From: an uncultured bacterium
GTDB lineage: Bacteria; Patescibacteriota; Minisyncoccia; UBA6257; GWB1-50-10
Length of the DNA: 64,000 nucleotides
Direction of reading: 5' to 3'
NCBI GenBank assembly: GCA_963713955.1
Contig: OY970216.1
Location: forward strand, 72,075 to 136,074
The notes beneath the pieces are model-generated. The model saw nothing but the letters and a program-made list of their open reading frames with translations, was not told where the DNA came from and ran no database searches. This document shows, in pieces, positions 1,754 through 62,288 of the stretch. Positions within the stretch are counted from its first letter, which is position 1. Every line of letters begins with the position of its first letter. A program made the position numbers and the translations under genes.

Positions 1754-3346
1754 TCACATTTCCTCCGGCGGCACAATGCCAAGGATCCTGAAAAGATTTT
1801 GGAAAACGACGGCGGTTGCCGAAACGAGTGCGAGCTTGGGTATTTCATCCTTCTCGCCAATGACTCTCTCTTTCTCATAGAAATTATGGAACGCACGGGC
1901 GGCGTCAAGCGCATACTTCGTGAGATGGTGAACCTCGCGATTTCTAGTCGAACTTTTCACGACATCCGGAAACGATGAGAGGATTGACATAAGCTTCCGC
2001 TCCGAGGGCGAGTTGAGTGCTCCAAGGTTTTTCGCCTTGATCCTCCCGTCTCCCCCGACGCCGGCTTTCGCAAGAATTTTCTTAGCTCTCACGTACGCGT
2101 ACTCGACATAAAATACCGGATTCTTCGATGATCTTTCTTTGGCTAAATCAAGATCGAAATCCAAATGGGACTGCGTTCCCACCATCAAGAAGAAAAACCT
2201 CGCGACGTTGACTCCCACCTCGTCGACCAGGCTCTCAAAGGTCACAAATTCTCCTTTCCTTTTCGACATTTTCACGAATTCCTTCCCCCTCTTCACGAGT
2301 ATGGCCTGCGTGATCACGACCTCAGATTCCCGCAACCCCAGGATGCGCGATATCGCCTCGATCCTTTTGACATACCCGTAGTGGTCGGGGCCGAGTACCA
2401 ATATTTTCGATTTGAAGCCGCGTTTCAGAGTCTCGAAGTAGTGGCCCGTGTCGGCAAGTATGTACGTGGAAAAGTTATCGCTCGTCACGAGCACCCGATC
2501 CTTGTCGTCTCCAAACTCGGTGGTTTTAAGCCACAATGCACCTTCGGACTCGTAGGCGAACCCCGATTCTTTGATCTTCCGCAGGGCCTTACGCACTAAA
2601 CCCTTTCGATGTATGTTTTTCTCGGACGTAAAGCGATCGAAGTGTATGCCCGATTTCTCCTCGAGGACTTTTTTGATCAAAGACAAAAAGTGCTTTGCGG
2701 CCTCCTCGCCCACGATCATGGGATCACCCTGGTGTTCCTCGACGAAATGGGCGTTTTCTTCCGCCCACCTCTTGACATAATCACCGCGGTAGAACTTGTC
2801 AGAGTCGCCGATGAAACCCAGCGCGGCGATCATGGACTTCCCGAGAGTCAGAATCTGGTTCCCCGTATCGTTCACATAATACTCACGTTCGACTTTCGCC
2901 CCGGAAAATTTGAGAAGATTCGAAAGAACGTCGCCGTAGAATCCGCCGCGGCCGTTCGCAAGGGTCAAAGGGCCCGTCGGATTCGCCGACACGTACTCAA
3001 CTTGGATTTTCCCCTTTGCGATCTTCGAGGAACCGTACTTTTTTTTCTTTTTCAAAACGGCCCCGATCTCCTCCTGGAGTACATCATCCCTCAGCCAAAG
3101 GTTTATAAACCCCCCGCCGGCTATGTCCACTTTAGCCAAGATATCCCCGAGAGATTCTTTTATCTCATTGGCCAGGATCGGAGCGATTTCCTGGGGGCGT
3201 TTCAGTTCATTCTGGGCCATGAGGAAAGCGATGTTCGTAAAATAATCGGCATCGGTTATCTTCCGGTCGGGGATGTCAACTAAAAAGTCACCGGCAAGAC
3301 CGGTGATTCTGCCGAGACGGCTCTCAATTTCTTCCTTGATCGTCAT
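1754..3346 (-). CDS. argS: Arginyl-tRNA synthetase
   Basis: The 539-aa minus ORF has the ArgS-specific Arg_tRNA_synt_N region, class I motifs (ANPTGPLTL, HYGY) and a DALR anticodon-binding tail. I place the start at ATG 3346 (MTIKEEIE), which has a GAGG 5 nt upstream. The track extends the frame to a TTG at 3373. Confidence 0.9.
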   Translation of the reverse strand: MTIKEEIESRLGRITGLAGDFLVDIPDRKITDADYFTNIAFLMAQNELKRPQEIAPILANEIKESLGDILAKVDIAGGGFINLWLRDDVLQEEIGAVLKKKKKYGSSKIAKGKIQVEYVSANPTGPLTLANGRGGFYGDVLSNLLKFSGAKVEREYYVNDTGNQILTLGKSMIAALGFIGDSDKFYRGDYVKRWAEENAHFVEEHQGDPMIVGEEAAKHFLSLIKKVLEEKSGIHFDRFTSEKNIHRKGLVRKALRKIKESGFAYESEGALWLKTTEFGDDKDRVLVTSDNFSTYILADTGHYFETLKRGFKSKILVLGPDHYGYVKRIEAISRILGLRESEVVITQAILVKRGKEFVKMSKRKGEFVTFESLVDEVGVNVARFFFLMVGTQSHLDFDLDLAKERSSKNPVFYVEYAYVRAKKILAKAGVGGDGRIKAKNLGALNSPSERKLMSILSSFPDVVKSSTRNREVHHLTKYALDAARAFHNFYEKERVIGEKDEIPKLALVSATAVVFQNLFRILGIVPPEEM

Positions 3347-3403
3347 GACCTCAACATCTCTAGTATATAACAAAAAGACAGCAATCAGTATAATATAATC
3401 AAT

Positions 3404-3835
3404 ATGACGATATTTGCTGAAAACAAAAGGGCGCTCTTCAATTACGAGATTCTCGAGGCTTTTGAGGCCGGCCTGGAACTCAGGGGATTTGAGGTCAAAG
3501 CCATAACGACCGGACGGGTCAATCTTTCCGGATCATACGCCGCCGTAGTGAACGGCGAACTCTGGATAATAAACATGGACATACCGCCCTATCAGCCGGG
3601 CAACGTTCCGGCCGGATACGATGAGAGAAGATCCAGGAAACTCCTTGTCAAAAGATCGGAAATAAACCGGCTGATAGGCGCGACAAAAGGATTGACATTG
3701 ATACCGATTAAGTTGTATAATAAGCACGGAAAGATAAAGATTGAGATCGGTCTCGTAAAGCCCAGAAGTAAAAAAGACAAGCGCGAGGTCATCAAGAAAC
3801 GCGAAACAGAAAAAGAAATCAGACGATATAAATAA
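3404..3835 (+). CDS. smpB: SsrA-binding protein SmpB
   Basis: 143 aa with typical SmpB length and sequence: NKRALFNYEILE...GFEVKAI...LLVKRSEI...IKLYNKHGKIKIEIGL, and a basic C-terminal tail. A tmRNA gene follows immediately. Confidence 0.9.
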   Translation: MTIFAENKRALFNYEILEAFEAGLELRGFEVKAITTGRVNLSGSYAAVVNGELWIINMDIPPYQPGNVPAGYDERRSRKLLVKRSEINRLIGATKGLTLIPIKLYNKHGKIKIEIGLVKPRSKKDKREVIKKRETEKEIRRYK

Positions 3836-4177
3836 GGGGGCGCAAGCTTCGACAGGAAAGATCTTTAAAAGTAGCAGGCCGAGGAGCGATGAACTCGTAA
3901 AACCGTCGCAAACTAAGAACTGCCAACAATAAAGTTGCAGCCCCGGCATTGGCTTTCGCTTAATACCGGCCCCGACTTAATTTAAGCCGGGCATCGGTCC
4001 TTGACTCCCGCTAAAGGTCAACCGGTGTCATACTGCGGGATACGTCCGCTAAAAGGGCTTTCAATAAAAACGGACCAAATCCATCGGAAGCAAAACCGCC
4101 TTCATTAAATTGGAGACTAAGCTTGTAGAATACTTTTGAATAATTTCTTGGACGAGGGTCCAATCCCTCCGCCTCCA
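3836..4177 (+). ncRNA. ssrA: tmRNA (ssrA), ~342 nt; CCA not encoded
   Basis: The gene starts at the base after the smpB stop. The 5' sequence GGGGGCG-CAAGC-TTCGACAGG matches the tmRNA acceptor and UUCGAC(G/A)GG hallmark. The internal stretch GGCCGAGGAGCGATGAACTCGTAAAACCGTCGCAAAC is near-identical to E. coli GCCGAGGGGCGGUUGGCCUCGUAAAAAGCCGCAAAC, which lies upstream of the tag. A tag-like reading frame GCC AAC AAT AAA GTT GCA GCC CCG GCA TTG GCT TTC GCT TAA gives ANNKVAAPALAFA*. The 3' tRNA-like domain has a T-arm GAGGG-TCCAAT-CCCTC at 4155-4169, then the acceptor strand CGCCTCC at 4170-4176, which pairs with 5' GGGGGCG over 7 bp including one G-U, then discriminator A at 4177. Confidence 0.8.
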
Positions 4178-4178
4178 C

Positions 4179-4222
4179 AATTAAAAATACCGGCATTCAT
4201 TGCCGGTATTTTTAATTGCTTG
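4179..4222 (+). terminator. Intrinsic terminator of ssrA
   Basis: A perfect 17-bp hairpin, AATTAAAAATACCGGCA / TGCCGGTATTTTTAATT, with loop TTCAT. The 3' arm runs into a T-rich tail, TATTTTTAATTG. Confidence 0.6.
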
Positions 4223-4245
4223 ATTCGCGAAGAGGGATTGGACCG

Positions 4246-4518
4246 AGGAAAGGGCCGGAAAACCGGGAGGTTTTCCGTGGTGGAAGTACTGAAACCGCAA
4301 GGTGTCAGGGAGCGGCTTGCTGTATAGCGAGCCGCGACGGTTCACTCCCTCCACTCGATTCGCCCACCTTAAAAGGTGGGTTCACTCGTGGTAAACCATC
4401 TGCTTCGCCATAATGATAGAGCCCTCTCGCATTTGCATTTCCGGGCGTTTTTTATTACTATTCTCCTATCGCTTATCAAAGATCATACAGACCAATACCG
4501 GTAGTTCCCCGGCAAAGA
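4246..4518 (+). promoter_or_regulatory. Structured leader of the infC-rpmI-rplT operon; possible autoregulatory attenuator
   Basis: About 270 nt of non-coding sequence sits between the ssrA terminator and the infC GTG start. It contains a perfect hairpin CCCACC-TTAAAA-GGTGGG at 4363-4380 and a GC stem plus T-tract (CCGGGCGTTTTTTATT) at about 4425-4450, just upstream of infC. By analogy to L20-mediated attenuation in Firmicutes, this is an inference. Confidence 0.3.
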
Positions 4519-5007
4519 GTGAACGGTGAGATAACCGCGCCAGAACTCCGGGTTATCGACGAGAAGGGGGAAAATCTGGGTGTCCTGAGGAAGGAGGAAG
4601 CTTTGGCAAAAGCCATGAATGCCGGGCTGGATCTCATTGAAATAGCTCCGGATGCCAAACCGCCCGTCGCGAAGATCATGAGCTTCGATAAGTTCCGGTA
4701 CCAGAGAGAGAAAGAAGAAAAAAAAGCAAAGCAGGCCCAGAAGCCCAAGGAACTGAAACAAGTACAAATTTCCGCCCGCATCGCCCTGAACGATTTAGCA
4801 ATGAAAGCGAAGCAGGCCGAAAAATTCCTGTCGGAAGGCCACAAAGTGGAAATCAACGTGAGGCTCCGGGGAAGGGAAAAGGCGAACAAAGACTGGGCGC
4901 TCGGAAGACTCAAGGAATTCATCGAAACAATAACCGTCCCTTACCAAGTAACGATGGAACCGCGGCAGGGAGGGAGGGGCTACGTCATGCAGATAACCAA
5001 AAAATGA
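4519..5007 (+). CDS. infC: Translation initiation factor IF-3
   Basis: 162 aa. The product reads LRVIDEKGENLGVL...AGLDLIEIAPDAKPPVAKIMSFDKFRYQ...KVEINVRLRGRE, which matches IF3 N- and C-domains. It has a non-ATG (GTG) start, as is typical for infC, and its stop overlaps the rpmI start (ATGA). Confidence 0.9.
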   Translation: MNGEITAPELRVIDEKGENLGVLRKEEALAKAMNAGLDLIEIAPDAKPPVAKIMSFDKFRYQREKEEKKAKQAQKPKELKQVQISARIALNDLAMKAKQAEKFLSEGHKVEINVRLRGREKANKDWALGRLKEFIETITVPYQVTMEPRQGGRGYVMQITKK

Positions 5008-5171
5008 AGAAAAGCATATCAAAGAGGATAAGAATCACGAAATCGGGGAAGATCATCCGGAGAGCGATGTCCTTGGGACACTCAAGAGCCAACAAACGGA
5101 CAACCCAAATCAAGAGGAAAAAAGGCGCGCGTTCGCTTTCCATGAGCGTAAATAAGATAAAAAACAACTGA
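5004..5171 (+). CDS. rpmI: Ribosomal protein L35
   Basis: A 55-aa basic protein, MKKSISKRIRITKSGKIIRRAMSLGHSRANKRTTQIKRKKGARSLSMSVNKIKNN, that matches L35 in pattern and in its position between infC and rplT. It is below the ORF-track length cutoff. Its start overlaps the infC stop and its stop overlaps the rplT start. Confidence 0.8.
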   Translation: MKKSISKRIRITKSGKIIRRAMSLGHSRANKRTTQIKRKKGARSLSMSVNKIKNN

Positions 5172-5521
5172 TGTCCAGGGTAAAAAGAGGTACAAACGCC
5201 CACAAAAAAAGAGAAAAACTGCTCAAGAAATCCAAGGGCTACCGATGGAGCAGGAAATCCAAAGAACGAGCGGCTCGCGAAGCTTTGCTCCACGGGCTCT
5301 CCCGCAAATTCAAGGGCAGGAAAGAGAAAAAAAGAGTCTACCGCTCCCTCTGGCAAGTGAAAATAAATGCCGCAGCGAGAGCAAACGGCACAACGTACAG
5401 CCGACTCATGAGCATGCTTAAAAAGAAAGGCGTGGAGCTCGACCGAAAAATACTCGCCGATGTCGCCGAAAACGATCCGGAAGTCTTCAAGAAGATAGTC
5501 AAGTTCGCTCAGCCCTCTTAG
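5171..5521 (+). CDS. rplT: Ribosomal protein L20
   Basis: 116 aa reading MSRVKRGTNAHKKREKLLKKSKGYRWSRKS...AAREALL, a canonical L20. Confidence 0.92.
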   Translation: MSRVKRGTNAHKKREKLLKKSKGYRWSRKSKERAAREALLHGLSRKFKGRKEKKRVYRSLWQVKINAAARANGTTYSRLMSMLKKKGVELDRKILADVAENDPEVFKKIVKFAQPS

Positions 5522-5972
5522 TTATCGCGCTATATGCTTTCTTCAGATTAGCCCTCAAATTGGGGGCTTTCAGCATCTTTAAGGCATCTTTGTAGAGAAA
5601 CCAGCCGTATCCTTGGTGCTCTCTCGGCACAATCGTGATTGATTGTGTTTTTGTTTCGGCGAGGTAGTAGATGACGAGACGCGGCACCCTCTTCCTTTCC
5701 TTCGTGTAAAAAACAAATCGGTCCGACACCTTGAACCAGTTCATGAAACGCAAGTCCCGTCCCTTGATCCCCGTTTCCTCCTCCACTTCCCGGAGCGCTG
5801 CCTTGAAACTCCGCTCGCCCTCGGCGAGCTTTCCTTTGGGGAAGTTCCAGTACGGCCCGCCATGATAAAGTAAAAGGAACTTCATCCCTTCATCGGTCCT
5901 TCTAAAAACGATCACGCCGGCGGAAACCGACAACGCTCCTTCTTTTTTATCTTCCAATGGTTGGGTCGCCAT
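5499..5972 (-). CDS. NUDIX hydrolase
   Basis: 157 aa. The Nudix box reads GKLAEGERSFKAALREVEEETGI (GX5EX7REUXEEXGU). It overlaps rplT convergently by 23 nt. Confidence 0.8.
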   Translation of the reverse strand: MATQPLEDKKEGALSVSAGVIVFRRTDEGMKFLLLYHGGPYWNFPKGKLAEGERSFKAALREVEEETGIKGRDLRFMNWFKVSDRFVFYTKERKRVPRLVIYYLAETKTQSITIVPREHQGYGWFLYKDALKMLKAPNLRANLKKAYSAITKRAERT

Positions 5973-6615
5973 GGTCTCTTATGATGGGCTGTTTCAACGT
6001 TTCCTTGGGCAAAATCAAATCTGGAATGAAAAATAAAAGAGAGGCGGACAAGAAAGAAAGAAGCGCAGTCAGGACGAAGATGGAATCGAAGCCGAGGATG
6101 AGGGCAATGCTGCCGCCGACGAAAGCCATAATGGCCGAAATCGAATCGATCCCAAAATGATCCAGCGTCCATTCCACGGAGTAATGATCCTTGTCCAGAT
6201 GCCGCGAAAATATTGCCGGCCAGGACGAAGAATAGAGCGCGAAGGAAATTCCCTGAAGAGCCATCACGGCAAAAAGCTCCACGGCGCTCTTCACGGTCAA
6301 AAACAAAATCGACACACAGCCGCCTATGAAAAGACCGAGTATCAAAGCGTAAAAATCATCCTTCTCCCCTTCGTGCCGGTCGAGGTAGATCGATATCGGG
6401 ACTTCGGATATGGCCTTCACCAGGTAATAAATGGCGGCTGAAACGCCGACCGTAAAAACATTCGCCTCGCCTATCCTCTGGAGCACGAAGACGGCAAAAA
6501 CCGGGTTCAAAAGACCCCACCCTCCCCAAAAAAGATAATCGGACAGAATAAAAAACTTGACGACCCTGTTCATTTTCGACCCTTGGAAGCTGATTTTGAC
6601 GTTTAAAAATTTCAT
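5947..6615 (-). CDS. Polytopic membrane protein, probably a transporter-like half
   Basis: 222 aa with 5-6 hydrophobic helices and no catalytic motif that I recognise. Confidence 0.55.
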   Translation of the reverse strand: MKFLNVKISFQGSKMNRVVKFFILSDYLFWGGWGLLNPVFAVFVLQRIGEANVFTVGVSAAIYYLVKAISEVPISIYLDRHEGEKDDFYALILGLFIGGCVSILFLTVKSAVELFAVMALQGISFALYSSSWPAIFSRHLDKDHYSVEWTLDHFGIDSISAIMAFVGGSIALILGFDSIFVLTALLSFLSASLLFFIPDLILPKETLKQPIIRDHGDPTIGR

Positions 6616-6632
6616 GATCCCAAGGTTGTAAA

Positions 6633-9122
6633 CTAATCCTTAACGACTTGAAATTCGAAGTTTCCGTTTTGCAAAGAAATTTTGACCGTGTCACCTTTCT
6701 CGAGATTCCCTTCCAGTATTTTCTCGGCCAGAACGCTCTTTATCTTGTCGGATATGACTTTTCTCAAAGGCCGCGCGCCGAAAACCGGATCGTAGCCCAA
6801 GCGCCCGAGCTCCGCGAGAACCTCATCGTCATAAACAATGCTGATCCCCTTTTCTTCCGCAAGCGTCTCGCCGAGTTCCTTGACCGAAAGGTCGGCAATT
6901 TGCTTTATTTCTTCCTCTTTCAAGCCCCTGAAAACGACGATATCGGAAAAGCGGTTCAAAAGTTCCGGCTTGAAGTAGGCCGACAGTCTCTTCTTAATCT
7001 CGTCCGAAATTTCTTCTACCGTCTTCCCGCCCTCGATCTCCGACTTGATGAAATCGGAGTTTGCGTTCGACGTCGCGATGATGATTGTGTTTTGGAAATC
7101 GACCGTCTTCCCGAGACTGTCGGTCAAGCGGCCGTCGTCGAATACCTGGAGAAAAAGATTCAAGACGTCCGGATGCGATTTCTCGAACTCGTCGAGGAGG
7201 ACAAGCGTGTACGGATTTTCGGAAACCGCATCGGTCAAGGAGCCGGTCTTCGTGCCGTCGGGGTTGCCGATCAGAGTCCAGATGCTCATCTTGTCCTGAA
7301 ATTCCGACATGTCGAACCGCTGCATGGCCGACTTGGAGCCGAACTGGACCTCGGCTAAGATCTTCGAAAGTTCGGTCTTCCCGACACCGGTCGGCCCCAC
7401 GAAGAGAAACGAAGCGATGGGCCCACCCTGCCGCGAAAGCCCGCTCCGGTACTCGCGGAGCGCCTTTGAAACGGATGAAACGGCCGCGTCCTGGTTTATG
7501 AACTCCTTATGGATGATGCCTTCCAAGTCCAGCAGTTTCTCCGCTTCGCCCGACGTCACCCGCTGAATCGGGATCCTCGAGATTTTTTCCGCAACGGAGT
7601 CGATATCCGCGACCGCGAGTGTCTTTTTCTTGTCCTCTCTCACCTTGGCAAGCGCCTGCTTCAGGAGATCCACGGCGCTCCCCGGGAGAGGCTTGGCATG
7701 GAAATACCTCTTCGCGAGATAAACGGCCTCCCGGATCGAACTAAAAGGTACGAAAACGCCGTATTCCCGCTCAAGGATAAGACCCTGGTAGATGAGGAAC
7801 CTCGTCGCCTCCTCCTCGCTTATCTCGTCGACCCGCACAATCTCGAACTGCTCCAAGAAATCGGATCGTGGTTCAATGTATTCCTTGAATTCCCGGGGAT
7901 ACGTTTCCCCGATGACCGGTATTGCAGCGTTTTTGATGATCGGCAAAATCATGTCTATCGCGTTCATGGATGCGGCTGACGTCCTGAAAAGGTTATGGAC
8001 GTCGGGAATGAAGAGAACAATATTCCCGGCTGTCACGATCTCGTCCGTCACCTCGTTTAAGCGCGCGCTCAAGATTTCCTGGGGAGCGTTGGCAATCAGA
8101 TTATTCACCTCGAGCGAGACCAGCCGCTTGTCGAACAAAACTTCGGGGACCTCGTCCTTGATCATACTGAAAGCCAGGTGGTCTATGATCGTCGATTTCC
8201 CGACCCCTGCCTCCCCGACAAGGAGTGCGTTGGGTTTACCCGGCCTCGAAATGACCTGGATCAGATATTCGTATTCTTTCTCGTGCCCGATGAGAAGACC
8301 GATGGCCCTTCCTCTCGCGAGATCGGTCAAATCCGTGCTGAATTTGTCCAAGGTCGGCGTGGGTTTCGCTGTCCAAGCCCGGTTCATCACGCGGTGCCGC
8401 AGGAACCTCGGCTCATGAGCAAAGCCGCCCACGAGGCGCGGAAGAAATCTCACGCCGCCGAACATTCTCCTCCACTTCCCGAAAACCACCGCCGATTCCA
8501 CGTCTTCCTTCGTAAGACCCGAGGCGGTAAGTACTTTCGGCAAGTCTCCGTCTTTGACGTCAAAGATCGCGGCGAAGATGTTCCGGGGATAGATGAAACG
8601 ATCGCCGTGGAGCGCCGCATTCCGGAAGGCGCTCAAAACCAAGTCGCTGAGAACGTTAAGATACTGGTCGCCCGCGAGATCGTTTTTATTGCCGAAGATT
8701 GCCTTGGCCTTCTTCAAAAAGTTATCAGGATCGACGTCTAAACGCTTCAGGACTTCCCGAATTTCTTTCCGCTCGGCGAGAAGCGTAAGGAGGATGAGAT
8801 AAAAATTGGCGTTCGTTCCCCTCGATTTTCTGAACGCATAGCCGATTATCTTGTACGAGGCGGGTGTCAGGGCGAGCGCGACGTTGCCGCCGCCTGAGAG
8901 CTCACTCAAAGTTTTTTCACCGTCCCGCGCGTGGAGAAGTCTGTCAAGAAGGAAGAGCAAGAGCAGAGTTCCCAACGCTATCAGTCTCCCGCTCCCCGAG
9001 AGTATGAAAACGACGGCCGCCGCAACGAGAACCAGGTAAAAGCAGAAACCCACGAGCCGCACGATGAAATCGTCCGGCTGGCTTAACAATATCCTCCTGC
9101 TTTTGAAATAAATCTCGGCCAT
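6633..9122 (-). CDS. ClpB/ClpC-family AAA+ ATPase with an N-terminal membrane anchor
   Basis: 829 aa with two Walker A boxes, GEAGVGKST and GPTGVGKTE, and a sensor-2 motif GARPLRRVI-like (GARPLRKVI). Clp_N-like repeats sit after two N-terminal transmembrane helices (FCFYLVLVAAAVVFILSG, LIALGTLLLLFLL). A middle domain is present. Confidence 0.85.
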   Translation of the reverse strand: MAEIYFKSRRILLSQPDDFIVRLVGFCFYLVLVAAAVVFILSGSGRLIALGTLLLLFLLDRLLHARDGEKTLSELSGGGNVALALTPASYKIIGYAFRKSRGTNANFYLILLTLLAERKEIREVLKRLDVDPDNFLKKAKAIFGNKNDLAGDQYLNVLSDLVLSAFRNAALHGDRFIYPRNIFAAIFDVKDGDLPKVLTASGLTKEDVESAVVFGKWRRMFGGVRFLPRLVGGFAHEPRFLRHRVMNRAWTAKPTPTLDKFSTDLTDLARGRAIGLLIGHEKEYEYLIQVISRPGKPNALLVGEAGVGKSTIIDHLAFSMIKDEVPEVLFDKRLVSLEVNNLIANAPQEILSARLNEVTDEIVTAGNIVLFIPDVHNLFRTSAASMNAIDMILPIIKNAAIPVIGETYPREFKEYIEPRSDFLEQFEIVRVDEISEEEATRFLIYQGLILEREYGVFVPFSSIREAVYLAKRYFHAKPLPGSAVDLLKQALAKVREDKKKTLAVADIDSVAEKISRIPIQRVTSGEAEKLLDLEGIIHKEFINQDAAVSSVSKALREYRSGLSRQGGPIASFLFVGPTGVGKTELSKILAEVQFGSKSAMQRFDMSEFQDKMSIWTLIGNPDGTKTGSLTDAVSENPYTLVLLDEFEKSHPDVLNLFLQVFDDGRLTDSLGKTVDFQNTIIIATSNANSDFIKSEIEGGKTVEEISDEIKKRLSAYFKPELLNRFSDIVVFRGLKEEEIKQIADLSVKELGETLAEEKGISIVYDDEVLAELGRLGYDPVFGARPLRKVISDKIKSVLAEKILEGNLEKGDTVKISLQNGNFEFQVVKD

Positions 9123-13169: not shown

Positions 13170-13172
13170 CTC

Positions 13173-13210
13173 GACCCCCTGAAAAATGAAGGGGGTTTTG
13201 TGTTTTTGTT
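13173..13210 (+). terminator. Rho-independent terminator after glmM
   Basis: GACCCCCTgaaaaatgaAGGGGGTTTTGTGTTTTTG: a 7-bp GC stem followed by a T-tract. Confidence 0.75.
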
Positions 13211-13213
13211 CCA

Positions 13214-13444
13214 CTAAAACCCCTCATACTGCTCCGTTGGATAATTCGGAGATCTCCCTTCTACGGATAAAGGGAAAAAGAGCTCTCTCTGTCTCGGGTC
13301 ACCGTTGATACTCACAAATAAGCCCTTCGGCTTCAAATCGAAGTCTATTTTGTCCATCAGAAATCCATTGATTATAAGCCGGAATAAGATTTCCTCTTCT
13401 TCATGAGTAAGATCGCGCAGTACACCATCCGTATCCATTTGCAC
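13214..13444 (-). CDS. Small hypothetical protein (76 aa)
   Basis: An ORF with ATG in the gap between the glmM terminator and the next gene. There is no recognisable motif and coding status is uncertain. Confidence 0.3.
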   Translation of the reverse strand: MQMDTDGVLRDLTHEEEEILFRLIINGFLMDKIDFDLKPKGLFVSINGDPRQRELFFPLSVEGRSPNYPTEQYEGF

Positions 13445-13494
13445 CTCTTCATTTATGAATGATCGTTATCGCTATCATGCCATAGCAAAAAGTT

Positions 13495-14433
13495 TTGTCA
13501 ACCAAATGGCAGGGAGGAAACAAAATTGGTAAGATAATGACTATGTCGATCACGATCGACGGAAAAGTCTTCTACCACGTGAAAACTAGGGCGTACACGC
13601 CGGTCTCGATATACAAAAACGAGGATTCGTTTCTGAGAATCGGCCCCAAAGATTTGATAATGCCGGAGCTCGACCTGCATAAACGCCTCCTGAGGTTCGC
13701 GTTCCCGGTACCCCAAATCGTTTCCGAGGGAGAAATTGACGGGAAGTATTACTACATCGAAGCCTCGCTAGGAGAAAACCTCCTAGGGGAGATGTTCTGC
13801 GAAGACTGCGAGAAATCCGGGACGATTTCCGGCGCGAACTTCCAGAAGTTTCTCTCGGTCACGGAGAAATTCGCGAAGGCACAGCTCAAAACGGCAGAGA
13901 GCGAAACCGCATTCGAAAGCTTCTACCACGGTGTCCACATCGACTACATCCTGAAAGAGCTGCCGTATCTGAAAGAAAAAACGCTCGCGGCTTTCGAAAA
14001 AATCAAAAGCCGGCTATCGGTCATGCCGACTGTACTGACACACGGTGATTTCAACGCATACAATCTATTCGAAGGAGGTGTCATCGACTTCGGAAATTCA
14101 TTCGAGGCTCCGGCCGGATACGATCTCATGAGCAACATCTACCAAACCTATCTCTTCCCGAAAGGCGAGGGCTTCGAGATGACCCGGGGATATGAGTTTT
14201 CGGCAAAGCAAATAGAAGAATACTTTTCTCTTTTGGACGACGTTTACGCACAAAACAACCTCCCGAAACTTTCCGATTTCGCCGATGACTTTATACTCGT
14301 GAGGACAATATGGTCTGCCGTCAGAATGCAGAAAAAGCCCAAGATACAGAAATGGCGATACGAAAAGTTCGAAAAGATTCTGGAGGGTTACCTATCGGGC
14401 AAAAACTTGGCGGAGATTATGAAAAACGACTAG
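13495..14433 (+). CDS. Aminoglycoside/choline-kinase-like phosphotransferase (APH fold)
   Basis: 312 aa. It carries the Brenner-type catalytic motif LTHGDFNAYNL and a DFG-like segment VIDFGNS. The start could be the internal MTMSITIDG. Confidence 0.65.
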   Translation: MSTKWQGGNKIGKIMTMSITIDGKVFYHVKTRAYTPVSIYKNEDSFLRIGPKDLIMPELDLHKRLLRFAFPVPQIVSEGEIDGKYYYIEASLGENLLGEMFCEDCEKSGTISGANFQKFLSVTEKFAKAQLKTAESETAFESFYHGVHIDYILKELPYLKEKTLAAFEKIKSRLSVMPTVLTHGDFNAYNLFEGGVIDFGNSFEAPAGYDLMSNIYQTYLFPKGEGFEMTRGYEFSAKQIEEYFSLLDDVYAQNNLPKLSDFADDFILVRTIWSAVRMQKKPKIQKWRYEKFEKILEGYLSGKNLAEIMKND

Positions 14434-14978
14434 GCGGGGATGATATACTCCCAGCCGGGGCGCCAGGATTTTGTTCTCCGCCAATCCTCCGTGAATGCCT
14501 CTTCCCACGTCTTACTCTTGAGAAGAACTTCCAGGGCGAGCTGCGGGGCTTGATGCGCGACTACCGCGATGTGCTTACCGTCGCAATTTTTCTTCAGGAA
14601 CTCCGTGAAATCCGCAATCCTCCGTTCGACGTCCAAATAGCTTTCCCCGTTGGGGAACGGGGCGCGGATGTATCTGCCGAGATCGTTCTTAAACTCTTTC
14701 TCCGGCTTCAAGGTGAAATCCCCGTAGTTGCATTCTCTCAGCCGACTGTCCGCGATGATCCGGTATTCGTCCCCGAAGCCGAGTTCCGCGGAATCGACGG
14801 CTCGCTTCAAATCGGAGCAAAAAACGGCGTCGAAGCGCTCGCCCGCGACAAGGACGCCGAGTTCCTTCGCCTGTTTCCTCCCCAATTCCGAAAGTTCGCC
14901 GCCCGCCCATCCCGTCGCGAGATCCCGCTCGTTATCCGTCGTCGTCCCATGGACGAAATAAGTGATTCTTACTGACAT
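14430..14978 (-). CDS. Histidine phosphatase (phosphoglycerate-mutase-like) family
   Basis: 182 aa. It has the N-terminal RHG-type motif (YFVHGTTTDN), a conserved catalytic H in AVVAHQAP, and the typical length. Confidence 0.75.
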   Translation of the reverse strand: MSVRITYFVHGTTTDNERDLATGWAGGELSELGRKQAKELGVLVAGERFDAVFCSDLKRAVDSAELGFGDEYRIIADSRLRECNYGDFTLKPEKEFKNDLGRYIRAPFPNGESYLDVERRIADFTEFLKKNCDGKHIAVVAHQAPQLALEVLLKSKTWEEAFTEDWRRTKSWRPGWEYIIPA

Positions 14979-15060
14979 AGTAGAGGTTTATCCTTAATAT
15001 TTTACTCTCTGATGCGTGTTGAAGCGAACCTAAACTTCCTACCTTCCTTCTCGCAAAACC

Positions 15061-15089
15061 TTGACTTAACAATAGATATATATTATAGT
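15061..15089 (+). promoter_or_regulatory. Sigma70-type promoter: TTGACT, 17-bp spacer, TATAGT
   Basis: The hexamers and spacing were read directly. The promoter drives the 15253 gene through an ~160-nt leader. Confidence 0.6.
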
Positions 15090-15252
15090 TTAAAGCTATC
15101 GTGGTAGTCTGGCTTTTGCTAATAAGCACTTCTTGTCTTGGTAAAAGCCAGATTGGCACAAAAACAAAAAGATCATTCAAAAACTTTCCGCTGTGGGTCG
15201 TCAAAGAAGCTGATCTGGTAACCCAAAACAGCGGAAACAAAAGGAGTTATGT

Positions 15253-16434
15253 ATGAAAAAGTTAGTTGCTTTTCTCGTCCCCTTGGCGATAGCGACCGTC
15301 GTGACGATTGTCGTTAAAGCACAGGGTACCTATTCTCCGCAGGATAGCTCGTACCTCGAGCAGTTCCGCGGGGAACCGGCGTCGAAAATCGTGCCACAAG
15401 TATGGCTCGACGAATGCAGGCTAAACCGCATACGATACCCGGACAGCAATATGGTCCGCGCAGGCGACACTCTCCTTCTACCTACCAACAAACGGTACAT
15501 CGTGGAAGGCAATCAAGGATCAGACCATATGTGGAGAGCGGCAATGTCCTTCGCGCAAAACACGGTGCTACCCTACTTAAACCATCACCAGAATGTGGTA
15601 TCCACGGTCGCAAACACCTCCAAAACCGCGATACTAGACCCGATTTTATTTTGGTTTCTGATAGCGGCGGTTCTACTCATTCTACTCGTAATGCTCTGGT
15701 TCATTCGGAAAAACCTTCTCGACCGCAGACATCCTTTTGTCGCGCGGCAAAATATCCCAGACTTCGAAAACGCCTCGGATGAAGAGGTTGAAGAAGTCGT
15801 GGAGAATGCGCTGAGACAGATCTACGGACGAAACTTTGAAATTGTAGGTCCTATCCAGAGAGGGTACATCGACGGCACAATGACAAGCTTCTTTGCCAAC
15901 GGATCGCAGCGGAATGAAGAGTTCCATGACGAGCCGGGATTCAGAGCTCGCCTCCGTTTCAACGATAGGCATGAGAGACTTGTTGTCTCCCGCTGGTCCT
16001 GCTTCAACCCCTGCTGGACAGCTCAAGACGCTCAGTTCAGCGGCACCTTCACACCGGTAGACGAAATGCACCCCCAAAGGATTGATAGGATCACGAACGA
16101 GGAGTTGGGTGACCTGACTCAAAACATAAGGCGCACCAATCGCGGAGAAGAACCGGCGGTGGATCCAATACCCCCTGCGGAACCTAAGGAAGAAGCAAGG
16201 GTAGAGGGGAGGCCAGGGCAAGAACCTAAACCCGAATCCCAAAAGGAAACTCCTGCTCCAGCTGTCGAGAAGACGGAAGAGGGGAAGCTGCACTTCACAA
16301 AGGTGCAGATCAGCAATGAAAAAGGATTGAATCTTGAAGGCAACTTTGACCTCACGCCGAAGGAACTTCAAGAGCTTATCACTCGAGTCACCTCCCCAGG
16401 AAAGACGGGAGAGGGGGAAGAGAAAGATAAGTAA
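15253..16434 (+). CDS. Secreted/membrane protein with an N-terminal LysM-like segment and a Pro/Glu-rich C-terminal tail
   Basis: 393 aa. There is a signal peptide MKKLVAFLVPLAIATVV, a LysM-like element ...MVRAGDTLLLP, an internal TM LIAAVLLILLVMLWFI, and a low-complexity EPKEE/PKPES tail. Confidence 0.55.
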   Translation: MKKLVAFLVPLAIATVVTIVVKAQGTYSPQDSSYLEQFRGEPASKIVPQVWLDECRLNRIRYPDSNMVRAGDTLLLPTNKRYIVEGNQGSDHMWRAAMSFAQNTVLPYLNHHQNVVSTVANTSKTAILDPILFWFLIAAVLLILLVMLWFIRKNLLDRRHPFVARQNIPDFENASDEEVEEVVENALRQIYGRNFEIVGPIQRGYIDGTMTSFFANGSQRNEEFHDEPGFRARLRFNDRHERLVVSRWSCFNPCWTAQDAQFSGTFTPVDEMHPQRIDRITNEELGDLTQNIRRTNRGEEPAVDPIPPAEPKEEARVEGRPGQEPKPESQKETPAPAVEKTEEGKLHFTKVQISNEKGLNLEGNFDLTPKELQELITRVTSPGKTGEGEEKDK

Positions 16435-16446
16435 AAGTTACACCCA

Positions 16447-16474
16447 GGCCTTGCGAAGATTTACTCGCAAGGCC
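16447..16474 (+). terminator. Hairpin terminator after the 15253 gene
   Basis: GGCCTTGCGA-AGATTTACT-CGCAAGGCC: a 10-bp stem with a weak U-tract. Confidence 0.5.
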
Positions 16475-16654
16475 CGTGCTCATTTATGGGATATCTTTCG
16501 CGCTTAATGGCACGTTCTTTAATCGTCCGCGCGGAGCGAAGCCATTGGTTTGGTGAGGCTAAATTCGATACGGCGGTTTTTCAGAAAGAGGTTCGGGCCA
16601 AAGATTTTTTGAGAGAGGGGCTTTTGTTCATATATCATAATACTTTTATAGGTA

Positions 16655-16683
16655 TTGACGCGGGGAATACGCCCATATATAAT
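16655..16683 (+). promoter_or_regulatory. Sigma70-type promoter: TTGACG, 17-bp spacer, TATAAT, for the AT-rich three-gene island
   Basis: Canonical hexamers, followed by an AGGAG-type RBS (aaggagctagg) before the ATG at 16723. Confidence 0.6.
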
Positions 16684-16722
16684 GGGCTTACCAGCTTATA
16701 AGGAGCTAGGTAGAAACGTATT

Positions 16723-17415
16723 ATGAAAGATGACCTAACACGACAATTTATAGTTGATGAAAGTGATACGCGCCGAAATACCCAGGAGCTTATTAAGAAA
16801 GTTCTCAAATTTGGGAAGGTATCTAAAACCGGAGATATCATTATTGAAGATAGGAGCCTGTCTAAAGACAATATTCTAAAACTCGCTCTTGTAGTTCGTT
16901 TTTTAGCTCATAGCCTAGATGAAAGTATCCCCGAGAGTATTCGTCCCAGTGACTTAACAAAGGTGATGAGCGAGCGAATTGAAGCCGTTGGCTCAAGGCT
17001 TAGCGTGTTAGTAAAATCAAATTTTGCTAAAAAGGATGGCTATGGGAAGTATGTAGTTCATCATTACAAAATCGAGAAGTTCTTGGCTGAACTTGAGTAT
17101 GGAAATGTGGCCGATGATCCAGACAAGACGGATCAGAATAAAAGGGGGCGCAAAATAAAAATAAGTCAGAAGAGGGGCAGGCCAGTTTATGGCGTTGGCG
17201 CAGATATACAGAATCTAATTGACTCTGGTTTTTTCCGGACACCTAAATTTGTTGCAGACGTTAAGAAAAAATTGGAGGAGGAGGTGAAATTTCATGACGT
17301 TAGAGTTATAGATACGGCTATCCGCAAGACTTTCATTATCAATAAAAAGCTTCTTAAGAGGATACCCAATACCGAGAAGGGCAAGGCGAAGTGGAAATAC
17401 GTTGTAAGAAGTTAA
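16723..17415 (+). CDS. Hypothetical protein, island gene 1 (230 aa)
   Basis: A long ORF in AT-rich sequence, by eye about 40% GC against a flanking ~52%. It has a basic K/R-rich middle (KRGRKIKISQKRGRPVYG) and no domain I recognise. Confidence 0.6.
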   Translation: MKDDLTRQFIVDESDTRRNTQELIKKVLKFGKVSKTGDIIIEDRSLSKDNILKLALVVRFLAHSLDESIPESIRPSDLTKVMSERIEAVGSRLSVLVKSNFAKKDGYGKYVVHHYKIEKFLAELEYGNVADDPDKTDQNKRGRKIKISQKRGRPVYGVGADIQNLIDSGFFRTPKFVADVKKKLEEEVKFHDVRVIDTAIRKTFIINKKLLKRIPNTEKGKAKWKYVVRS

Positions 17416-17425
17416 TTACACGACT

Positions 17426-17860
17426 ATGAATCCCAAAAATCTCGCAGCAAAACTTGAGAATATAAAGATGCTAGCCGACGAGTGTTTGGCCGCTTTAAAT
17501 CTTTTGGAGGGTACATCCTCGTTAAAGAAGGCTCATAGAGCCCTCCTTAAAGAAAATAGACTTAATTTGAAGCCTGATTTTACTATGCCGATCAGACCTT
17601 TCATCAAGAAATATGCGAAGGGTATGAGTGGCCCTAAAAAATTTACACTAATCCTTGCTTATATGGCTAAGGGCGATAAGAGTATTCAGGTACCGCTTGA
17701 AGGTATTAAAAATGCTTGGGATAAAATGACTTCGAGCTCATTGCTCGGTATGAAATTTAATCGTTTCTATTCTGGTCAGGCTAAAGATAATGATTGGGTA
17801 GAGTCTAAAAAGAGCGGAAGCTATAATCTGCGTCCATTGTGGATGGATATATTCACATGA
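17426..17860 (+). CDS. Hypothetical protein, island gene 2 (144 aa)
   Basis: It lies 10 bp downstream of gene 1, in the same AT-rich composition. Confidence 0.55.
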   Translation: MNPKNLAAKLENIKMLADECLAALNLLEGTSSLKKAHRALLKENRLNLKPDFTMPIRPFIKKYAKGMSGPKKFTLILAYMAKGDKSIQVPLEGIKNAWDKMTSSSLLGMKFNRFYSGQAKDNDWVESKKSGSYNLRPLWMDIFT

Positions 17861-18621
17861 AACCTCACGATAAAATCAAATCTTTATTGATCGGAAGTTT
17901 CAACCCAAAACAGATTGACGGGATTCTGAAATATTATATGCAGGCCATAGAGAAATACCACGAGGGAGATTGGGAGGGTGTTGCGTTGAAGGGAGGCAAG
18001 TTTGTTGAATCATTAACTAAGGCGTTAATGATCTACTGTGGCATCTCTTTACCTCGACAGAGAGCTTTTAAAGCGGGAACGGTTCTCAAAAATCTTGAAC
18101 AAACAGATGCTTCGAGGTATGACGATGTAATCAGAATTGTCATACCAAAGGCGGGTATACTAATTTATGAGATTGTGAATAACCGAGGTGGTAGACACGA
18201 CGCAGACGATATTGATCCAAATAGTATGGATTCCGAAATCATATTGCCAACTATGTCGTGGATTCTTGCGGAAATGGTGCGTTTTGCTAATAAAGGAAAG
18301 AGTACTGATCAGGCGAGAGATACCATCCAATCCTTAACGAGGAAGACTTATCATTCATTTGAGGAGATAGACGGCAGGCCATATACAAATATCAACGACT
18401 TGGATGCGTCCAGTACGGCAATATTACTACTTTACTATAAATATCCAGCTAGAATCTCTCGAAAGGATTTGATTGGATTTGTGGAAAGACATGGCTTTAA
18501 AAATAATGCGGCGAGTGTTGCGGTGCATCGTATTAAGTCGTTCGTAGACGATGACAATGGCAACTTTAAATTGAGGAGTACAGGGGTGCAAAGAGCAGAG
18601 GAAATATTGAAAGAAGCTTAG
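17857..18621 (+). CDS. Hypothetical protein, island gene 3 (~254 aa)
   Basis: Its ATG overlaps the gene-2 stop (ATGA), which suggests translational coupling. The track ORF starts at 17839, and I prefer 17857. It contains NRGGRHDADD, which is only loosely Rx3-4H-like. Confidence 0.55.
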   Translation: MKPHDKIKSLLIGSFNPKQIDGILKYYMQAIEKYHEGDWEGVALKGGKFVESLTKALMIYCGISLPRQRAFKAGTVLKNLEQTDASRYDDVIRIVIPKAGILIYEIVNNRGGRHDADDIDPNSMDSEIILPTMSWILAEMVRFANKGKSTDQARDTIQSLTRKTYHSFEEIDGRPYTNINDLDASSTAILLLYYKYPARISRKDLIGFVERHGFKNNAASVAVHRIKSFVDDDNGNFKLRSTGVQRAEEILKEA

Positions 18622-18743
18622 CCATTATTTCAATGCCCTCCTACTTCCTCTACGCCCGTAAATCTACCGACATCGAAGACAAGCAAGTCCGCGATTTTCA
18701 CTCCGAGAAAACTTTCCTGGGGGTAAGCTCTATAGTACCTTAG

Positions 18744-18815
18744 TGCGCCCACGGGGAATCGAACCTCGATTTTATCCTTCGGAGGGATACGCTCTATCCG
18801 TTGAGCTATGGGCGC
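18744..18815 (-). tRNA. tRNA-Arg (anticodon CCG)
   Basis: The reverse complement GCGCCCATAGCTCAACGGATAGAGCGTATCCCTCCGAAGGATAAAATCGAGGTTCGATTCCCCGTGGGCGCA folds as a cloverleaf. The 7-bp acceptor is GCGCCCA/TGGGCGC, the D-arm is GCTC...GAGC, the anticodon stem is TATCC/GGATA with loop CTCCGAA, and the T-loop is TTCGATT. CCA is not encoded. Confidence 0.85.
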
Positions 18816-20183: not shown

Positions 20184-20270
20184 GAGTGAGGCGCGGTGAG
20201 GCGAAAAAGTGTGCGCTCCGGGGCGCTAGCCCAAGTCTTACCCACTTTTTCGCCTCACCGCGCCTCACTC
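20184..20270. repeat. Palindromic repeat element, copy 1 (core plus 28-bp inverted arms)
   Basis: GAGTGAGGCGCGGTGAGGCGAAAAAGTG-[TGCGCTCCGGGGCGCTAGCCCAAGTCTTACC]-CACTTTTTCGCCTCACCGCGCCTCACTC. Related copies are at 38190, 61066 and 62213. Confidence 0.8.
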
Positions 20271-38066: not shown

Positions 38067-38297
38067 GGGTTTGCTTTCTTAAGGGAATGAAAACCTTATG
38101 ACAATGATAAAGGTATTTCGAAAAGTTGCAACATCGATTCTCACGGCTGCTGTGGTTTAACTGTGGACGGGGTGTTGATAATTTATGACGAGTCTCGGTG
38201 AGGCGAAAAAGTGGGTAAGACTTGGGCTAGCGCCCCGGAGCGCACACTTTTTCGCCTCACCGAGACTCTTCCTTTGGTGTGAGAGTGATGGTACAAT
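38067..38297. promoter_or_regulatory. dnaA-rpmH divergent intergenic region; candidate oriC portion and divergent promoters
   Basis: The dnaA(-)/rpmH-rnpA-yidC-jag(+) arrangement is classical. Imperfect DnaA-box-like sequences occur (TGTGGTTTA, TGTGGACGG). The region contains copy 2 of the palindromic repeat. Confidence 0.4.
38190..38268. repeat. Palindromic repeat element, copy 2 (core inverted relative to copy 1)
   Basis: GAGTCTCGGTGAGGCGAAAAAGTG-[GGTAAGACTTGGGCTAGCGCCCCGGAGCGCA]-CACTTTTTCGCCTCACCGAGACTC. Confidence 0.8.
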
Positions 38298-61065: not shown

Positions 61066-61134
61066 TTGGTAAGCCGAAAAAGTGTGCGCTCCGGGGCGCT
61101 AGCCCAAGTCTTACCCACTTTTTCGTCTTACCAA
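61066..61134. repeat. Palindromic repeat element, copy 3
   Basis: TTGGTAAGCCGAAAAAGTG-[TGCGCTCCGGGGCGCTAGCCCAAGTCTTACC]-CACTTTTTCGTCTTACCAA. The arms differ from copy 1 by paired compensatory changes. It sits between convergent xerD and the PAP2 gene, whose stop codon lies inside the element. Confidence 0.8.
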
Positions 61135-62212: not shown

Positions 62213-62288
62213 CTCGGCAAGCCGAAAAAGTGTGCGCTAGGGCCGCGCTTGCCAAGCCTTACCCACTTTTTCGTCTCACCGAGCCTCG
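62213..62288. repeat. Palindromic repeat element, copy 4 (diverged core)
   Basis: CTCGGCAAGCCGAAAAAGTG-[TGCGCTAGGGCCGCGCTTGCCAAGCCTTACC]-CACTTTTTCGTCTCACCGAGCCTCG. Confidence 0.7.

Follow-up and report, generated by a model that had tools for sequence, protein, structure and literature searches.

Three genes of atypical composition, orfA, orfB and orfC, lie next to a tRNA-Arg(CCG) gene in a 64-kb window of contig OY970216.1 (the window being the whole stretch of DNA analyzed here). The current evidence strongly supports a foreign origin of the block that carries them, and the best explanation of positions 16530-18688 of the forward strand is that they are the decayed remainder of a small integrative mobile element that has lost its true ends on both sides, along with its large serine recombinase, and that retains a cargo operon under the element's own promoter. 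As to the function of this cargo, we consider it reasonably probable that the trio is an abortive-infection or toxin-antitoxin-like module built around a HEPN RNase, with orfC as the predicted effector.

The acquired block and its parent element

The three genes, all on the forward strand, are located at positions 16723-17415 (orfA, 230 amino acids), 17426-17860 (orfB, 144 amino acids) and 17857-18621 (orfC, 254 amino acids counted from the ATG, or 260 counted from an upstream GTG), with an intergenic gap of 10 bp between orfA and orfB, and with an ATGA at 17857-17860 shared by the orfB stop and the orfC start. A forward-strand sigma-70-type promoter (TTGACG-17-TATAAT, 16655-16683), agreeing with the consensus at 11 of 12 positions, and an AGGAG ribosome-binding site (16702-16706), read from the sequence and located 16 nt upstream of the orfA ATG, follow the hairpin downstream of the preceding gene (at ~16447-16474). 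At the other end, the orfC stop is 121 bp away from the tRNA-Arg(CCG) gene (18743-18815, minus strand; ARAGORN, Rfam), whose 3' end points toward the trio. A preliminary description of this DNA, which had pointed to three compact co-directional open reading frames (ORFs) of 230, 144 and ~254 amino acids, to their own near-consensus promoter and ribosome-binding site after a hairpin and to a tRNA-Arg about 120 bp away, was thus accurate as to the layout. It was also accurate in calling the operon AT-rich relative to its flanks: GC content is 0.385-0.41 over 16600-18600 versus 0.50-0.55 in the flanks, the trio has a GC content of 0.399 and a third-codon-position GC content (GC3) of 0.39-0.41 versus GC3 of 0.58-0.73 in eight neighboring genes, and no other 1.9-kb stretch of the window has a GC content as low as that of the trio (0.395 versus a mean of 0.503, with a standard deviation of 0.027), about 4 standard deviations lower. 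Position 16486, which had been given as the start of the interval, is the ATG of a 71-amino-acid ORF (16486-16701) that crosses the promoter, is antisense to the recombinase remnant described below, and is probably not a gene.

The origin of the block is apparent from its alignment with a metagenomic contig (L098), with which positions 16530-18688 share 90.1% nucleotide identity over 2,163 bp (blastn), both flanks being unrelated. Sister contigs L178-L180 share the L098 arrangement, and in L098, L178, and L179 the trio is found directly upstream of a gene for a large serine recombinase of 502 amino acids, for which the Resolvase (E 1.3e-20), Recombinase (E 3.8e-14) and Zn_ribbon_recom (E 2.7e-09) domains are recognized in L179. 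The element in L179 measures 3,616 bp (3346-6961), and its ends are formed by a 153-nt inverted repeat, 94% complementary, whose right arm coincides with the 3' end of the recombinase ORF and terminates at the 3' half of a minus-strand tRNA-like sequence, not called by ARAGORN. Possible interpretations of this 3.6-kb unit are an invertible segment and a serine-recombinase transposon of an unusual kind.

Both sides of this arrangement have left traces in the window. On the left, positions 16530-16640 are an inverted copy of the recombinase 3' end, whose minus strand translates to ..QKIFGPNLFLKNRRIEF..ASLR, a recognizable recombinase C-terminus; the inner ~110 nt of the 153-nt left arm are thus kept, and the outer ~43 nt are gone. 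Just inside the left arm, L179 and L098 possess a copy of the promoter (TTGACA-17-TATAAT), and from this position and conservation the promoter can be assigned to the element. On the right, the gene for the large serine recombinase survives at 18634-18688 of the forward strand as its first 18 codons (MPSYFLYARKSTDIEDKQ..), with the rest deleted; this stub is identified from the L098 alignment and from the full-length gene present in L098 and L179, as a tblastn search of the window with the recombinase of another contig (L094) produced a weak match on the short stub and no other (E 0.033). An intact recombinase with the Resolvase, Recombinase, and zinc-ribbon domains is therefore not encoded in the window.

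Neither breakpoint of the block is a true element end, and the trio is thus not bounded by intact ends. The homology to L098 stops 54 bp before tRNA-Arg, and this 54-bp spacer (18689-18742), compared to the outer right inverted repeat, shows similarity no better than that of shuffled sequence. A post-hoc observation is that the heptamer GTCCGCG is present at both breakpoints (16525-16531 and 18687-18693); it may represent junction microhomology from illegitimate recombination, or a coincidence. Two candidate attachment (att) sites did not hold up. One is the palindrome CGCTTCGC-GGA-GCGAAGCG, considered as the crossover site as the homology between the window and L098 starts at its center, and this candidate is weakened by the L179 repeat extending 43 nt further out. 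Another is the previously proposed direct repeat of the tRNA 3' end, CGGGGAAT, which is located in the promoter spacer and is not kept in the 90%-identical copy; an 8-mer common to the 73-nt tRNA and a 280-bp region has a chance expectation of ~0.3 by our estimate, and the repeat search found no longer tRNA-derived repeat.

The tRNA-Arg flank can be compared with that of a syntenic host relative (L028), which encodes an identical tmRNA (transfer-messenger RNA) tag; the two are collinear along 21 kb, with a nucleotide identity of 64-76%. In L028 nothing separates the glmM stop from the 3' end of tRNA-Arg(CCG), and all of 13170-18742 of the window is absent, which is more than the block. The location at a tRNA 3' end, with an empty site in a relative, is as expected for a serine-recombinase element, subject to the larger gap in L028. 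The additional segment, 13170-16529, encodes a 76-amino-acid ORF, an APH-type kinase, a His_Phos_1 phosphatase, and a 393-amino-acid low-complexity membrane protein, with host-like GC3 (0.58-0.72), and could have been inserted earlier at this tRNA flank or, alternatively, been deleted from L028. As this segment is also missing in L028 and has host-like codon usage, the tRNA-Arg flank appears to be a site of repeated gene gain or loss. An exact empty site was not found among the close relatives, L028 being the sole syntenic one and lacking the whole 5.6 kb; the empty site in the host lineage is predicted to read AATCGTCCGCGATTTTCAC. Contig L014 runs out 0.8 kb past glmM, in unrelated sequence, and Kryptoniota and Bacteroidota metagenome-assembled genomes (MAGs) encode glmM that is ~70% identical, with no synteny in the genes downstream of it. 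The host lineage itself is uncertain, the labels of the syntenic relatives being inconsistent. Overall, the horizontal acquisition and the mobility proposed in the preliminary description are strongly supported, by the atypical composition, by the 90%-identical block found with a recombinase in an unrelated context, by the recombinase stub and by the abutment of glmM and tRNA-Arg in L028.

The genes appear to have been maintained. Between the copies in the window and in L098, synonymous divergence (dS) is 0.33-0.44, and the ratio of nonsynonymous to synonymous divergence (dN/dS) is 0.10 for orfA, 0.18 for orfB and 0.04 for orfC. The trio is therefore made of real genes under purifying selection.

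Predicted folds and the orfC motif

The AlphaFold model of orfC (pLDDT, the predicted local distance difference test, 88.7) consists of an N-terminal helical bundle (residues ~1-160), in which four helices alternate up and down and an insert separates helix 2 from helix 3, as is typical of the HEPN fold, and of a C-terminal winged helix (~165-254). The preliminary description had called an NRGGRHD segment of this protein loosely HEPN-like, and this proved to be well placed: the segment (N109-R110-G-G-R113-H114-D115; 18181-18201, forward strand) immediately follows helix 90-108, at the canonical active-site position of the predicted fold as defined for HEPN domains (PMC3710099). In an alignment of 115 diverse sequences of the family, N109, R113, and H114 are invariant, and no position of the motif is conserved at less than 90%. 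The second HEPN motif, Ex3[KR] of helix 2 (PMC3710099), is represented by E51-x3-K55 (18007-18021, forward strand) in helix 39-60, with E51 invariant and K55 at least 90% conserved, so that the second helix bears the expected acidic residue. Foldseek ranks HEPN domains first for orfC, though not at significant E-values. At the level of sequence, 13 of the 115 family members match HEPN families of Pfam weakly (the best match, to PF05168, has an E-value of 0.0012, below the threshold), and Abi_C (PF14355) appears as a precomputed flag on one member (P0117) and with an E-value of 0.084 on another (P0322); no family member reaches a Pfam gathering score, and orfC itself is without a Pfam match. 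Judging by the model and by the conservation of these residues, orfC is the predicted effector RNase of the trio and is likely catalytically competent.

The partners of orfC are also of the winged-helix type. The orfB model starts with a long helix (residues 3-45), followed by a winged helix (56-135), and both this domain and the C-terminus of orfC display a three-helix core with a beta-hairpin wing. The sequence of orfA suggests two winged helices with a basic, K/R-rich linker between them; its weak Pfam matches, Cullin_Nedd8 and HTH_12, are of this type, and its C-terminal domain shares homology with the winged helix encoded by the first gene (G1) of related four-gene cassettes (hhalign, 96.8-97%, E ~1e-10). 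G1, the second gene of these cassettes (G2), and the orfA C-terminus are paralogous winged-helix domains. Nucleotidyltransferase domains, searched for in orfA and orfB, produced no match. The possibility that tandem winged-helix proteins of this kind belong with Kleisin/KITE proteins of Wadjet-like systems was also considered and is ruled out by the lack of an SMC ATPase in these cassettes. A conserved N-terminal module of ~30 residues (..G.KITVEGTPDEVAALV..), without a family match, precedes the winged helix in G1 proteins, for example at 2696-3052 of L003, at 7329-7685 of L013 and relatives, and at 6702-7232 of L185; it is absent from the orfA of the window.

With respect to distribution, the orfA family numbers 24 proteins, the orfB family at least 122 and the orfC family at least 134 in a word-seeded search, and an exhaustive profile search for orfC uncovered representatives of 958 clusters (at 50% identity), with 682 matching at E 1e-10 or better. 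The full-length matches to orfC measure ~250-260 amino acids, and many of the listed representatives are truncated. The organism labels of the family members include Nomurabacteria, Pacebacteria, Parcubacteria, Buchananbacteria, Betaproteobacteria, Terriglobia, Pseudolabrys, Promethearchaeota, and Nitrososphaerales, all of these labels deriving from MAGs, in which binning errors are possible. A near-identical orfA fragment also carries the label of a Nitrososphaerales archaeon. Viral contigs searched with the orfC and orfB profiles contained no relatives, and profile searches of Protein Data Bank sequences retrieved nothing for orfB and orfC and noise alone for orfA.

Cassette architecture, neighborhoods, and function

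Approximately 90 loci were searched with hidden Markov models for orfA, orfB, orfC, G1, and G2. In all of these, orfC is the last gene, with the exception of L141 and L151, in which a weakly G2-like ORF follows it, and the genes upstream of it on the same strand are arranged as G1-G2-B, G1-B, G1-G2, G1-G2-G2, or A-B. Homologues of orfA also head cassettes that terminate in other genes (8001-9840 in L010 and L011, 6001-7369 in L183, 6001-7963 in L185). One such last gene encodes a winged helix with a DUF4145-like HEPN domain (E 5.7e-4), another encodes a winged helix with a PLD-like domain (E 0.021) that carries an HxR..D..GNSxN motif, and in a third the winged helix precedes a C-terminal domain with R-x5-H; these assignments are all below threshold and serve as leads. 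This suggests an effector-swapping family wider than the orfC family. The orfA homologues associated with the alternative last genes come from Parcubacteria-type and other MAGs.

The neighborhoods of the cassette are typical of defense islands. One example is the type I restriction operons (hsd), inside or beside which the cassette is found in L003, L004, L013, L096, L112, L122, L139, and L153. In L003 it separates hsdS from hsdR and is followed by an AIPR gene, and in L004, L013, L096, L112, L139, and L153 it adjoins hsdRMS. Another example is L007, where the cassette adjoins type III-like restriction-modification genes and AbiU2. A third is L094, where it adjoins genes for an EcoRI-type methylase, GmrSD, and a serine recombinase overlapping a tRNA-Ser. 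Among the 34 loci with at least 3 kb of flanking sequence, 13 have a neighbor of the restriction-modification type and 7 have a serine recombinase, both being raw counts and, given the limited set of seed proteins, lower bounds. The defense or toxin-antitoxin nature of the cassette, as anticipated in the preliminary description, is thus supported circumstantially, by the residues found at the HEPN active-site position and by the restriction-modification neighbors of the homologues.

A number of observations weigh against assigning the trio to HEPN RNase modules. The spacing between R110 and H114 is x3 (or R and H are adjacent, if R113 is counted), one residue short of the canonical Rx4-6H; the Foldseek E-values for orfC are not significant (0.23 or worse); and the nearest structural neighbors of orfC are HEPN-T proteins, not all of which are catalytic. 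The preliminary description had found no assignable family motif, and, likewise, searches of Pfam, NCBIfam, PHROGs, and PADLOC-DB v2.0.0 produced no match at threshold for the trio or for distant family members; nor did the 115-member alignments when compared to these libraries, the matches of distant orfC relatives to PADLOC being noise. Some of the loci counted above are duplicates (L114 of L004 and L118 of L096, both among the 13 with restriction-modification neighbors), so that independent loci are fewer, and the near-identical cassettes of L173-L175 make up 3 of the 7 recombinase loci. The trio in the window itself has no restriction-modification or other defense neighbor.

The analysis establishes the foreign origin, the purifying selection, the folds, the conservation and placement of the motifs, the modularity of the cassettes, and their association with recombinases and restriction-modification genes. 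We infer for this module an RNase activity, its inhibition by the winged-helix partners, a trigger and an anti-phage phenotype, which could be connected as follows. orfC would dimerize via its HEPN domain, forming a metal-independent RNase site with E51/K55 and R110/R113/H114. The translationally coupled orfB, along with orfA, would bind orfC and/or nucleic acid by their winged helices, keeping the nuclease silent; the same winged helices would possibly sense the trigger, by contact with a protein or a nucleic acid, and orfA and orfB would perhaps also autoregulate the promoter. An imperfect 28-nt inverted repeat (79%; 16623-16650 and 16711-16738) flanks the promoter and the start of orfA, and it could be a candidate operator for the winged-helix proteins. 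The trigger might be a phage infection, or else the loss or inhibition of a partner, such as the neighboring type I restriction enzyme in the embedded versions of the cassette. The released RNase would cut cellular RNA, causing growth arrest, a behavior of the abortive-infection or toxin-antitoxin kind that would also stabilize the carrier element.

A much broader proposition, which we put forward tentatively and consider less likely than not, is that the cassettes represent an unnamed, widespread, and modular anti-phage system of bacteria and of archaeal-labeled MAGs, in which an array of paralogous small winged-helix proteins is combined with a winged-helix-fused nuclease, of the HEPN type in this case and DUF4145-like HEPN or PLD-like in others. 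In this system, the embedded forms would act as a second-line suicide RNase monitoring the type I restriction complex, in a PrrC-like fashion and with an entirely different sensor, made of winged-helix subunits, and the spread of the cassettes would rely on miniature elements that encode a serine recombinase and have long inverted ends.

Alternatively, the trio could be a pure addiction module that stabilizes the serine-recombinase element or an island through post-segregational killing and has no anti-phage role. The large serine recombinase is indeed linked to the trio in the closest relatives and in 7 of the 34 informative loci, genes for a type IV secretion system and relaxase are found near the cassette in L004, L007, and L178, the architecture of a HEPN toxin is present, and in the window the module has outlived the recombinase, as an addictive module should. 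However, most loci lack a recombinase, and many copies are found inside chromosomal type I restriction-modification operons, a pattern of defense genes, and an addiction role and an anti-phage role are not mutually exclusive. We find a pure addiction module, which would agree with most of the data, unlikely.

A second alternative removes catalysis altogether: the trio would be a winged-helix repressor complex, with HEPN as a ligand- or nucleotide-binding module, controlling the genes for restriction-modification, for defense or for the element. The conservation pattern speaks against this, as E51, N109, R113, and H114 are invariant in the 115 diverse sequences at the exact catalytic positions, and orfC is the most constrained gene of the trio (dN/dS 0.04). 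Moreover, orfA-linked cassettes swap the last gene for DUF4145-like HEPN or PLD-like domains of the nuclease type, which points to an effector role, and the copy in the window has no neighboring operon to regulate. Such a regulator appears improbable, even more so than a pure addiction module. Finally, the position of the trio in L179, directly upstream of the recombinase, in the same orientation and within the 153-nt inverted repeats, would agree with a role as accessory factors of the recombinase (in directionality, inversion control or DNA bending of the 3.6-kb unit), and small winged-helix or helix-turn-helix proteins often act as recombination directionality factors, but a recombinase is not detectable in 27 of the 34 informative loci, the family occurs within hsd operons, we know of no HEPN fold among recombination accessory proteins, and purifying selection acted on the copy in the window even though its recombinase is gone, making such a role highly improbable.

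Comparison with known systems

We classify the cassette as a conflict system based on HEPN, in which both the HEPN family and the architecture of the partners are new. The differences from the established systems are several. Compared to the HEPN-MNT pairs (HepT/MntA, SO_3166/SO_3165; type II/VII toxin-antitoxin), the cassette is without a minimal nucleotidyltransferase, its partners being winged-helix proteins, and orfC possesses an additional C-terminal winged helix and an R-x3-H motif, in place of the Rx4H of HEPN-MNT. PrrC and RloC are resembled by the relatives of the cassette in L003, L122, and L139, which are located between hsdS/hsdM and hsdR and in which a HEPN RNase would be the suicide effector, and this likeness suggests, by analogy, activation when the restriction enzyme is disabled. 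However, orfC (254 amino acids) has no fused ABC-ATPase, the cassette is composed of multiple genes, and the copy in the window is found by a tRNA, outside of any restriction-modification operon. To AbiJ/Abi_C (PF14355), members of the orfC family display weak, sub-threshold similarity around the active-site motif, and a HEPN domain resembling DUF4145 (PF13643) is used in the orfA-linked sister cassettes; the domain order of orfC is HEPN followed by winged helix, rather than an N-terminal sensor followed by HEPN, and it has small, dedicated partner proteins.

In terms of the described mechanism, the closest analogy, and one with experimental backing, is the recently solved type IX retron (Retron-Kva2), in which HEPN is held inactive by a winged-helix protein: this protein, along with msDNA (multicopy single-stranded DNA), occludes a HEPN site with a non-canonical motif, and the HEPN protein, once released on infection, cleaves rRNA and tRNA (bioRxiv 10.64898/2026.07.14.738597). 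The parts of a retron are not found here, with no reverse transcriptase ORF between 13 and 22 kb and no noncoding RNA or msDNA recognized by Rfam in the window, where it detects tRNA and one tmRNA and nothing else, and the retron winged-helix protein, which has three domains and 245 amino acids, is unlike the small partners of the cassette. The CnuE proteins of CoCoNuT systems are wHTH-HEPN (winged helix-turn-helix) effectors of McrBC-related systems, among which shortened RxH motifs occur and which are linked to type I restriction-modification superoperons (PMC11090510). In our cassette, by contrast, the order of the domains is reversed, and homologues of McrB and McrC, a helicase, and coiled-coil proteins are all lacking. 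In the literature, we found no description of a HEPN-winged-helix protein encoded after arrays of small winged-helix proteins, an absence that is not proof.

As to the vehicle, the likeness is to islands in which a large serine recombinase targets a tRNA gene: the recombinase ORF runs into, or is next to, a tRNA in L094 and L174 (annotated as tRNA-Ser in both) and in L179 (the tRNA-like 3' half alone), the cargo includes defense genes, and the block in the window is found at the 3' end of tRNA-Arg. The differences are that the window retains an 18-codon stub and no intact ends, and that inverted terminal repeats of 153 nt, as in L179, are unusual; a 3.6-kb serine-recombinase unit with such ends is an unusual vehicle in itself.

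The orfC family comprises at least 958 clusters, whose labels range over Patescibacteria, Proteobacteria, Acidobacteria, and archaeal MAGs, and it recurs in restriction-modification loci and on mobile elements; it is nevertheless missing from Pfam, NCBIfam, PHROGs, and PADLOC v2, and its sequences match no solved structure. Should the cassette prove functional in the proposed way, it would contribute a new family of HEPN proteins in which the active-site motif is shortened, a new mode of controlling a suicide RNase, by winged-helix arrays rather than by nucleotidyltransferases, ATPases, or msDNA, and one more back-up effector tied to type I restriction. The 1.9-kb operon, driven by a near-consensus promoter of its own, presents a compact and tractable experimental target.

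Two further observations concern other features of the window. A minus-strand predicted ORF of the Wzy_C type (O-antigen ligase-like) overlaps tRNA-Arg by 44 nt (18772-18815) at the 3' end of the ORF, and the same overlap is present in L028. In addition, a dispersed palindromic intergenic repeat of ~85 nt is found at 20184-20270, with further copies at 38196-38262, 61075-61125, and 62252-62287, one of the copies being positioned between the Wzy_C gene and a gene for an 89-amino-acid EFTu_D2 protein. It resembles a repetitive extragenic palindromic (REP) element or a miniature inverted-repeat transposable element (MITE), its 28-nt inverted arms (GAGTGAGGCGCGGTGAGGCGAAAAAGTG...) being perfect and its hairpin predicted at -56.7 kcal/mol.

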